Source: Escherichia coli (GTDB lineage Bacteria; Pseudomonadota; Gammaproteobacteria; Enterobacterales; Enterobacteriaceae). From it: 64,000 nucleotides of DNA. The DNA is taken from NCBI RefSeq assembly GCF_016903815.1, contig NZ_CP069973.1; one strand, written 5' to 3'. Of this stretch, positions 53,101-56,100 are shown in pieces. The position numbers were made by a program. Position 1 is the stretch's first letter. Every line of letters begins with the position of its first letter.

Positions 53101-56100
53101 AATTCCTGCCAGTAATAATGCGCCCCCCGCCCGTAGATGATGTGTTGTCAGTTTCACTTTTTTATCCTTTTTTTAATCGTTAACTGACTATAATGGCAAG
53201 ATCACTACGATTTAAAAAACGAAAAGCTATCGAATAGAAGAAAAAGGTATATAAAACTGGCACTTCTTACTGACCACGCAAACACCTTTCGTACAGCATG
53301 ATGAGAGCGGCAAAAGCAAACTACACTTATGCTTCATTCGATGCACATTTGCAGAAGGTTGCAGCTATGAAGCCAACGATGCTACTCATGATTACCGTAT
53401 TCCTGACTTTCCCAGCCATTTCTCAGGCCGAATCGCCATTCAGTTCTCTACAGTCGGCAAAAGAAAAGACCACGGTATTGCAAGATTTACGTAAAATTTG
53501 CACGCCACAGGCGTCATTATCAGACGAAGCGTGGGAAAAATTAATGTTGTCTGATGAGAATAACAAACAACATATCCGCGAAGCTATTGTGGCGATGGAG
53601 CGTAATAATCAGAATAACTACTGGGAAGCGCTGGGTAAAGTGGAATGCCCGGATATGTGAATTTCGCACACCTCCGCGCTCAGGCCAGCAGCCGCTGACG
53701 TACGCTCGCACATCAGTAAATCACCTGCTTTTTCAAATTCCAATCAAAATTGCACCCGTTCATCAGGATTGTGGAGGAATTTCCCTCTACATTGTTTTCA
53801 TTTCATCACATAGAAAATCTTATCTCATTGAAACAATACTTGTTTTTAATGCAGAAAAGGAAGCCCAACGGATGGGCATAAAAATGAGCGAATTTTGATA
53901 TCACCACCCTCTAAAAAATGGTGAAGTCTGAACAAAGAATGTTCGAAAGGAGAGAGTAGAGATGGAAAGCGCAAATCTGGATTTAGAAGAAAATAAAGAA
54001 ATTGCCAGTAAGTTCGAACGTGCATTAGGTATGGGAGCAACACTTGCAGAGCTGCATGGCATTACTCCGGATACCCTTGAAGGCGTTTATGCTTACGCTT
54101 ATAACTTTTATGAAAAAGGAAGACTTGACGAAGCTGAGCTCTTTTTTAAATTTCTCTGTATTTATGATTTCCAAAATTATAACTATTTAAAAGGATATGC
54201 CGCCGTCTGTCAGTTGAAGAAAGATTATCAAAAGGCATTCGACATGTATCATATCTGTTTAATGCTATCTCCCGATAACGATTTCTCTTTGATTTATTAT
54301 ATGGGCCAGTGCCAGATGGGCTTAAAAAACACTAAAATGGCCACGGAGTTATTTAATACAGTCGTAACCTACAGCCAAAATGAAAAAGTTAAAGAGATGG
54401 CTACTGCTTATCTTGAACTCTTGACAGCCAATACCGAAGAGGAAGTTCAAACAGAGTGAGTCGGCAAAATGAACATAAACGGAAAAAACTCTTCTTTTAC
54501 GCATGAAGAGTTAATCAGGAAATATCATGAGGAAGCCCCGGTTGATTTAAAAAATAACCATGGCGATAAAATAAATGAGAAGAATAACAATAAACACATT
54601 ACTTACTTTCCCGTTGATGCCATTTTAGATGGGAATAAACATCTGCCATGAGTTAAATAAAAAAGAATTAATTACACCCGATGATAGCTTAAAAAGGAGG
54701 TGAATTATGTCGGCACCGATTACGGGACAAACGATCACGTTTGAACAAATCAGCGAAACATTGCGCACACAGTATAGCGATGCGGAAAAAAGACTGCAGG
54801 ACAGCAACAAAACGCAAGTTGATCCCATGCGGCTTAATAAAAACCCGAAGTCCCTTGATAACGATATTCGCACTCGTCTTGAAAACAAACCTATGCTTGC
54901 TCCGCCTGAAATGCAGGTTTCAGATTCCGACAACGCCACTACAGCAAAGACGAACGATGCCCGCCTGACAATGATTTTGGGTAATCTAACAGGCATTGCC
55001 GATCAGGATATTACAACACGTTTGCATAATAACCTTGACAGCACCCTGCTTCGACACGAAATGGCACATAATAAGTTTCGTGAATTAAGTGACGCTTACT
55101 CATCGTCATTAGATTCCGCGCAAAAAGCCGACGACATCATGCATCAGGCCAATAATAATTACAATGCGGTCGATAAAAAGGTGCAATCGCTGGAGAAAAA
55201 AGTCAACACATTGAATCAAGAGCTCTCGCAACTGCAACCTGGCGATCCGCAATATAATAAAGTAGTGACGCAAAAAAGTGCGGCTGAAAAAACACTCACG
55301 CTGTCATTACAAAAAAAATCGTTAGCTGAGAAATCGTTAAATACAGCCATTATGGATGCTGATGCTGCGATCGGCCAAAGTATGGAAATTTTTGACGAAA
55401 TTCAACAGCAAGAACAGATTAATAACTTCACCACCAATATTTGCCTGACCCAGGAAAACCAGAAAAACAGAAACGCAACAGCCACATTTATCCTTTTGAT
55501 TACCTCAGTAATGGAAGTTATTGGTGATACCAATTGCGAATCGATCAAAAATCAATCTGAGGTAATGAAAGAGATTAACCATGTCAGGGAAAATAAACTC
55601 AATGAAACAGCGCGTAGCTATACTACATGGACAAAAGTTTTAAACATTATTAATGAGGTCGTTACTGTAGTTACATTTGCCGTAAGTGCAGCCTTAATTG
55701 TGATTGGTATTGTCGCAGCAGTTCCAAGTGCTGGGGCAAGCTTTGCTGGAGCGCTGGCACTAATTGGAGGAATCGCAGGGGCAGTAGTATTAGGTGTTGA
55801 TATTATTTGTCAAATCACTCTGGGTACCACGGCTACCGGTTGGATTTTGGGAAAACTAACTGAAGGTCTTGCGGGTATTATTTCTAAATATGACCCCACA
55901 CTACTCGCAATCTGCGCTCTTCTGGACGCCTTGGGTGTCCAACAAACGACTATTGATTTAGTACAAGATATTTACTCATCTGCAGCCGCTTCTATTGTTA
56001 TGGTAACATTAATGATTGGTGCAACATTAATTTGTTCAGTAGCAATAAGTGAACTTGTAAAGGCACTCTCAAAAACTGCCGCCGAAGAAATCACAAAAGA

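Follow-up and report, generated by a model that had tools for sequence, protein, structure and literature searches.

The yicS-eicA intergenic region of an Escherichia coli genome: left boundary of the eip island and candidate site of a chaperone-dependent promoter, probably a relic

The intergenic region between yicS and the chaperone gene eicA was analysed in a stretch of 64,000 nucleotides from Escherichia coli (RefSeq assembly GCF_016903815.1, contig NZ_CP069973.1), hereafter the window. The original prediction had placed a second insertion point and a promoter region at 53661-53961, and these positions proved exact: they cover the whole 301 bp from the yicS stop codon to the ATG of the chaperone gene. 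With a probability of roughly 0.65, the region is the left boundary and the regulatory region of the known eip island, with a promoter of the eicA-eipBCD operon that would depend on EivF plus a chaperone and that is now probably an inactive relic in this lineage. The features of the locus are collected in Table 1.

In E. coli K-12, the convergent nepI follows at 40 bp from yicS, as had been assumed. Homology to K-12 spans window positions 51213 to 53658 and ends there (blastn), and the alignment with the yicS-nepI region of K-12 confirmed that the 301 bp are without any K-12 match. A base-level comparison showed that the yicS stop codon is TGA in the window, where it is supplied by the island, and TAA at five empty sites. 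On the right side of the island, as seen in strain 7/2, K-12 homology restarts at the stop codon of nepI. The island swapped out 48 bp of backbone, with no target duplication, and comparison of the two junctions revealed no direct repeats. No integrase was found within the eip block, the integrase belonging to the separate selC-proximal island; the block thus lacks the combination of integrase and attL/attR repeats of a tRNA-linked integrative island. The right end of the island gives nepI a new stop codon (39301 in the strain 7/2 stretch, outside the window), and NepI has 394 residues instead of 396 in K-12. Among 5,426 complete E. coli genomes, 739 have the 301 bp as a single copy, in each case with at least 97% identity and at no other E. 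coli location. The yicS allele of the window is unusually divergent, with 82% nucleotide identity to K-12. This gene is hypervariable among E. coli lineages (82-92% nucleotide identity; nlpA has 94-97% and nepI 93-99%), and its identity to yicS of Escherichia albertii is 76.5%.

Strain 7/2 is 100% identical to the window over 33298-56723 and 57492-64000, a single insertion sequence IS1 being the sole difference. Downstream of yicS, strain 7/2 carries in this order the chaperone gene, an open reading frame (ORF) of 60 codons, the genes for a YopB/SseC-type translocator, for EipC (hypothetical), for an IpaD/SipD-type tip protein, for the HilA-family regulator EilA and for the inverse autotransporter Air, and then nepI. 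In this strain the block extends up to the stop codon of nepI, which makes it an insertion apart from the selC-integrase island, as had been proposed. This second insertion is however already known: it is the published eicA-eipBCD-eilA-air island, also named selC-B or eip island, which sits between yicM (nepI) and nlpA and lies apart from selC-A, with backbone genes in between (PMC7058095, PMC11068852). The assignment of the first gene to a SicA-like chaperone was equally borne out by its product of 165 residues, a member of the SycD/LcrH family which matches Shigella IpgC with E = 1e-39. The same island is found in E. albertii at the same site directly after yicS, with about 70% protein identity; the E. 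albertii chaperone gene shares 71% DNA identity with eicA, and its product 70% protein identity. A third eip-like module was detected in rare genomes labelled as E. coli, with a chaperone that is 55% identical.

Table 1. Features of the yicS-eicA intergenic region and of its surroundings in the window
Feature	Position	Strand	Basis
yicS, core gene forming the left flank	53367..53660	+	same offset as annotated yicS in strain 7/2
Left junction of the eip (selC-B) island, in or at the yicS stop codon	53658..53661		blastn end and empty-site comparison
Junction-proximal lineage-specific segment, 85 bp, GC 52.9%	53661..53745		GC count and alignment
Upstream element CATCAGGATTGTG	53761..53773	+	conserved in three lineages
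Terminator-like hairpin, 8-bp stem, -11.6 kcal/mol, followed by TTGTTTTCAT	53770..53791	+	scan and fold
Candidate InvF/MxiE-type activator box AATGAGCGAATTTTGATATC, predicted EivF plus chaperone site, overlapping the -35 region	53883..53902	+	
Predicted extended -10, TGgTGAAGT	53919..53927	+	register with other chaperone promoters
Shine-Dalgarno sequence AGGAG, 9 nt 5' of the ATG	53948..53952	+	GGAGA kept in E. albertii
eicA, SicA/IpgC-family class II type III secretion system (T3SS) chaperone, first gene of the operon	53962..54459	+	ORF and RefSeq annotation
ORF of 60 codons between eicA and eipB, annotated hypothetical	54469-54651		
eipB, SipB/IpaB-like translocator, intact	54707..56488	+	
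eipC, cut by IS1 after about 74 codons (376 residues in strain 7/2)	56501..56723	+	
IS1 copy replacing 5,313 bp of the intact island	56724..57491		comparison with strain 7/2
air/eaeX, inverse-autotransporter adhesin gene, 3' end deleted, 5' end beyond the window	57492..64000	-	

The alignment of the E. coli and E. albertii intergenic regions is uneven. A block of about 32 bp, located about 60-90 bp before the ATG, is near-invariant, the leader with the Shine-Dalgarno sequence is moderately conserved, and the first 110 bp or so cannot be aligned. A box common to the upstream regions of SicA-like chaperone genes was first noticed in five lineages. In the window it reads AATGAGCGAATTTTGATATC, which is identical at 20 of 20 positions in E. 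albertii and at 19 of 20 in the third variant, with adjacent chaperone genes that are about 71-73% identical. Two metagenomic relatives also have the near-invariant block, and one of them carries its chaperone gene behind spaS within a complete T3SS.

Chaperone loci of other genera (Salmonella, Chromobacterium, Providencia, Yersinia, Sodalis, Erwinia, Proteus and Burkholderia) were submitted to a de novo motif search. From 53 loci, 48 non-redundant upstream regions were obtained, Escherichia-type sequences being excluded. Some 38 of the 48 regions contained the consensus GATGAGCGATTTTTGAATGT, which lies 79-135 bp upstream of the start codon and has TTTAAT or TTAAAT about 20 bp further on. In Salmonella the motif lands on ATTGGGCGTTTTTTGAATGTT, which is the published InvF-binding site of PsicA, ANNGGNCNTTTTTTNAANGTT (PMC8490769); this site overlaps the -35 region and was validated by point mutations (PMC7595419). 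As the de novo motif and the published InvF site coincide in Salmonella, the box AATGAGCGAATTTTGATATC is regarded as positionally homologous to the InvF site. With a position weight matrix built from the 48 promoters, the position 53883 scored 10.8 bits and ranked 6 of about 128,000 window positions; about 0.03 hits of this score are expected by chance per region of 301 bp. The distance of the box to the ATG, 79 bp, lies within the range of the training set. Furthermore, the G and the T equivalent to G6 and T10 of the MxiE box are present at 53890 and 53894; mutation of these MxiE-box positions abolishes activation (PMC9769918). The best matrix match in the window was rejected: AATGAACGTTTTTTTAAATC at 964-983 on the minus strand (15.9 bits) lies inside an ORF of 230 codons (495-1187, minus strand) and its score is in the range of chance.

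The original prediction had expected a promoter with a possible SPI-1-type regulator site (SPI-1, Salmonella pathogenicity island 1), and this expectation is supported by the comparative evidence, with the candidate box and a predicted in-register -10 element at 79 and 40 bp before the ATG, respectively. The predicted -10 element lies 20-25 nt after the box, as do TTTAAT and TTAAAT in the chaperone promoters of Salmonella, Providencia and Chromobacterium. Its counterparts are TGgTGAACT in E. albertii and TGaTGAAGT in the third variant. Transcription would start near 53934, giving a leader of about 28 nt. A pairing of TTGATA as -35 with CTAAAAAAT as -10 was discarded, the spacer being only 11-13 bp and the element not being kept in E. 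albertii.

The conserved block could also be explained by an ordinary sigma-70 promoter with TAAAAAT (53879-53885) as -10 element and a start near 53892, in which case the block would be an element of the 5' untranslated region involved in translational control or RNA structure. TAAAAAT adjoins the box on its upstream side and is kept in both E. coli and E. albertii, and good conservation extends from it as far as the ATG. The element is however lost in the third variant (GCAAAAT) and before eilA and ygeF, where the box stays, and TAAAAAT was rejected as -10 because it is absent at sites that retain the box. In Salmonella the homologous block is located upstream of the transcription start (PMC7595419), and a comparison of the region with Rfam gave no match to any RNA family. 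Since the same box precedes unrelated downstream sequences, it is more readily seen as a DNA site than as an element of the untranslated region, and the sigma-70 explanation is considered very unlikely.

Perfect matches to AATGAGCNNNTTTTGATA were found solely at PeicA, PeilA and PygeF. In all DNA examined, AATGAGCnnnTTTTGATA, a lineage-specific form of the box, is matched perfectly at just three kinds of place: before eicA, before eilA and before the ygeF-ygeG-ygeH cluster. The box is located 93 bp before eilA, with 21.1 bits in E. coli 7/2 (25837-25856 of that stretch) and 16.5 bits in E. albertii (13279-13298), the top scores there. In strain MS 69-1, it is located 85 bp before ygeF-ygeG-ygeH, within the locus of ETT2 (type III secretion system 2 of E. 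coli), with 20.3 bits (25597-25616 of that stretch, minus strand). This is the sole strong match in 50 kb, about 1e-4 being expected by chance, and since the site had no part in building the pattern, it counts as an independent prediction. The cluster includes a SicA-like chaperone gene (ygeG) and a gene for a HilA-like regulator (ygeH), and strain MS 69-1 encodes an AraC-family protein, EivF, at the position of invF. In the third eip-like module, the box stands before the chaperone gene and not before the gene for the EilA-like regulator.

A second alternative is that the promoter is a direct target of EilA, a HilA-like regulator of OmpR/ToxR type, which would bind the box, the CAT-rich repeats or the CATCAGGATTGTG element and activate eicA without EivF. 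EilA is indeed the sole regulator experimentally tied to the expression of eicA and the eip genes. The region does contain the CAT-rich repeats TTTCATTTCATCACAT (53796-53811) as well as CATCAGGATTGTG, the latter being conserved in three lineages (as CATCAGGATTATG in E. albertii and CATCAGGATTGCG in the third module variant). On the other hand, the box is homologous to the PsicA site which is bound by InvF and not by HilA, and no box precedes eivF or air, both of which also depend on EilA. In a prior-free test for 9-mers shared by eight island promoters, which bears on both the CAT-rich motif and CATCAGGATTGTG, sharing was not above shuffles. No HilA motif was derived in a published HilA ChIP-seq study. 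A direct action of EilA is regarded as unlikely.

In the proposed mechanism, eicA-eipBCD would be driven by a class II activator-dependent promoter without a usable -35 element, in which the box covers the -35 region and is followed by the extended -10. By analogy, EivF, the AraC-family InvF homologue of ETT2, together with free chaperone (EicA or YgeG) may turn the promoter on; the models for this step would be InvF-SicA at sicA-sipBCDA and MxiE-IpgC at MxiE-box promoters. EilA is published to up-regulate eicA and the eip genes as well as air, eivF and eivA; EilA and YgeH both activate eivF and can substitute for HilA in sic/sip expression in Salmonella. A cascade from EilA or YgeH to eivF and then to the box promoters fits these data; the dependence of eicA and the eip genes on EilA would then act at least partly via eivF. 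H-NS silencing has been published for ygeH, and by analogy the AT-rich DNA at eicA is probably silenced by H-NS as long as the activator is missing.

The boxes before eilA and ygeF-ygeG-ygeH suggest a feedback onto the HilA-like regulators. The AATGAGCnnnTTTTGATA box may even define a so far undescribed EivF/chaperone regulon of the cryptic ETT2, with the translocator operon as one member and the two HilA-like 'master' regulators, at eilA and in the ygeF-ygeG-ygeH cluster, as the others; this tentative proposal is less likely than not to hold. If it did, secretion activity would be sensed as free chaperone, which would give a positive feedback onto the top of the cascade. We know of no such wiring onto the top regulators in SPI-1.

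Several points weigh against an EivF-dependent promoter at this place. EivF is not known to bind DNA or to need a chaperone, and the promoter, its start and the activator site are here predictions from sequence comparison. The cognate activator gene eivF is absent from the same genome, ETT2 being deleted in strain 7/2 and in six genomes that share the IS1 junction of the window. The 10.8 bits of the box are below the chance maximum of a scan of 64 kb (14.6 +/- 1.9), which makes the sequence match by itself modest. A search for InvF- or HilA-type boxes had been suggested, and an InvF-type candidate was indeed obtained at 53883-53902; AATGAGCGAATTTTGATATC fits however only 9 of the 16 specified positions of the InvF consensus ANNGGNCNTTTTTTNAANGTT, and likewise 9 of 16 of the MxiE consensus GTATCGTTTTTTTAnAG, which falls short of the published consensus. 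The hexamer of the predicted -10, TGAAGT, is poor (3/6), and a simple sigma-70 consensus scan of the region did not find a promoter. Across the 739 E. coli genomes, conservation of the promoter core does not exceed that of the junction-proximal 85 bp. Among six divergent E. coli alleles, 16 positions of the 301 bp vary, none of them in the box, the -10 or the Shine-Dalgarno sequence, which is not significant alone. Within-species conservation was abandoned as a functional signal, all sub-segments being equally conserved. The case for the box is thus built on its position, its invariance across lineages and its recurrence.

Considerable decay was observed in this lineage. In comparison with strain 7/2, the IS1 at 56724-57491 took out the remainder of eipC, eipD and eilA in full, and the final 1,061 bp of air. 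Six complete genomes (strains 222, 103, AR_0015, 2779, 5283 and 98192) carry exactly this IS1 junction; at least 10 further genomes share the side between eipC and IS1 alone. In strain 7/2 and in all six junction genomes, the ETT2 locus is cut down to yqeG, a hypothetical gene, an IS3 remnant, ygeQ' and glyU. The scar of strain 7/2 (31300-34420 of its stretch) and its equivalent in E. coli B/BL21/REL606 share 99.9% identity. With eilA, eipD, most of eipC and the whole ETT2 (eivF and the apparatus) lost, the promoter is probably an orphan relic, with eicA and eipB still intact behind it.

Any transcription of eicA-eipB in this strain is, from the sequence, most probably basal or due to read-through from yicS, which is possible because the lone terminator-like hairpin is not conserved. 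A third alternative is that dedicated promoter activity is lacking, that eicA-eipB are transcribed in this strain, if at all, solely by read-through and that the 300 bp are inert DNA of the island edge. The gene yicS is co-oriented and located 301 bp upstream, the hairpin is weak, the consensus promoter scan was empty and all presumed activators are absent from the lineage. This explanation however describes the present state of the strain and not the identity of the sequence, and as such it is compatible with the EivF-dependent promoter proposed above. Moreover, the conservation of box and predicted -10 across lineages argues that the element was functional in the history of the island. The third alternative is held to be very unlikely. 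The hairpin at 53770-53791 was rejected as a conserved intrinsic terminator of yicS: its stem is not kept in E. albertii and, among five other E. coli alleles, is broken in four by GG>TA at 53776-77. It is probably not a conserved functional terminator.

The 301 bp had been described as AT-rich, which applies to 53746-53961 (36-38% GC) and not to 53661-53745 (52.9% GC); the overall value is 41.2%, compared with 49.2% for the window. The first 85 bp had no match among the loci examined, and an origin as remnant of the 3' end of SpaS/EpaS, of nepI, of an insertion sequence end or of ETT2 DNA was rejected. In the related strain DA33137, an IS1-mediated deletion from the selC side takes setC', yicL, nlpA, yicS and 53661-53775 (115 bp), with the IS1 abutting 53776.

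Around the island, a few further observations were made. The ORF of 60 codons between eicA and eipB was dismissed as a conserved small gene, having no counterpart in E. albertii or in the third variant. The spacer of 250-280 bp after the chaperone gene is kept in all ETT2-lineage modules; it measures 2 bp in Salmonella. The third module has an inverse-autotransporter adhesin gene upstream on the same strand, followed by the chaperone gene, SipB/C/D-like genes and an EilA-like regulator gene. In E. albertii, nlpA is missing between yicL and yicS. A contig of the metagenome-assembled genome that represents a 'Collinsella sp.' in GTDB bears eicA with 99% identity, and this bin is almost certainly contaminated by E. 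coli. The selC-proximal island of the window (41403-51300) consists of tRNA-Sec, an integrase gene, a gene for a TPR protein, LacI/MFS/GH31 sugar genes and ykgR, with setC reduced to a remnant; it also carries an IS1 at 50460-51157.

ETT2 together with eip is a widespread and functionally obscure second T3SS of E. coli, which is intact in bloodstream isolates of sequence type 69 and in enteroaggregative E. coli (EAEC) 042. We know of no secreted substrates of this system, and its regulatory map (EilA, YgeH, H-NS) is to our knowledge sketchy. A cis-element common to PeicA, PeilA and PygeF would tie EivF to the chaperones and to the HilA-like regulators in a testable way, and would also serve as a pattern to search for effector genes. 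If the regulon proposed above is real, searches for the box in ETT2-intact genomes could uncover ETT2 effectors that are still unknown. Beyond the known insertion, the addition made here is modest: the SPI-1-type site now has a specific candidate, which recurs at eilA and ygeF-ygeH. As the locus is a decaying remnant without apparatus and regulators, eicA and eipB should be left out when functional virulence genes of this strain are listed.

The locus can be compared with three known systems. With the eip island of EAEC 042, it shares the set and order of genes (eicA, eipB, eipC, eipD, eilA, air/eaeX), the site between nlpA/yicS and nepI (yicM), the absence from K-12 and the separation by backbone from the selC-proximal island. 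In contrast to the island of EAEC 042, the copy in the window has decayed, with the IS1-associated loss of eipC', eipD, eilA and the 3' end of air and with ETT2 absent. The left junction is placed here exactly at the stop codon of yicS, a gene which is not named in the published accounts (PMC7058095, PMC11068852). Salmonella PsicA likewise stands immediately upstream of the orthologous operon for chaperone and translocators, lacks a usable -35 and shows the box core A..G.GCG..TTTT.GA; its -10 is as far from the box as the predicted -10 in the window. The window box differs from it by its 3' half, GATATC instead of GAATGT, by two As in place of Ts and by matching only 9 of 16 positions of the published consensus. 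The predicted promoter in the window moreover belongs to an isolated module and not to a position behind spaS, its presumed activator EivF being encoded at another locus. The MxiE boxes of Shigella (PMC9769918) are also matched at 9 of 16 positions, and they precede effector genes and not the ipgC operon. Nevertheless, they are clearly the same kind of element as the InvF site. The critical G6 and T10 are present in the window, and the candidate box would resemble the MxiE boxes in its location over the -35 region, in its AT-rich, H-NS-silenced context and in the logic of an AraC-family activator acting together with a class II chaperone.

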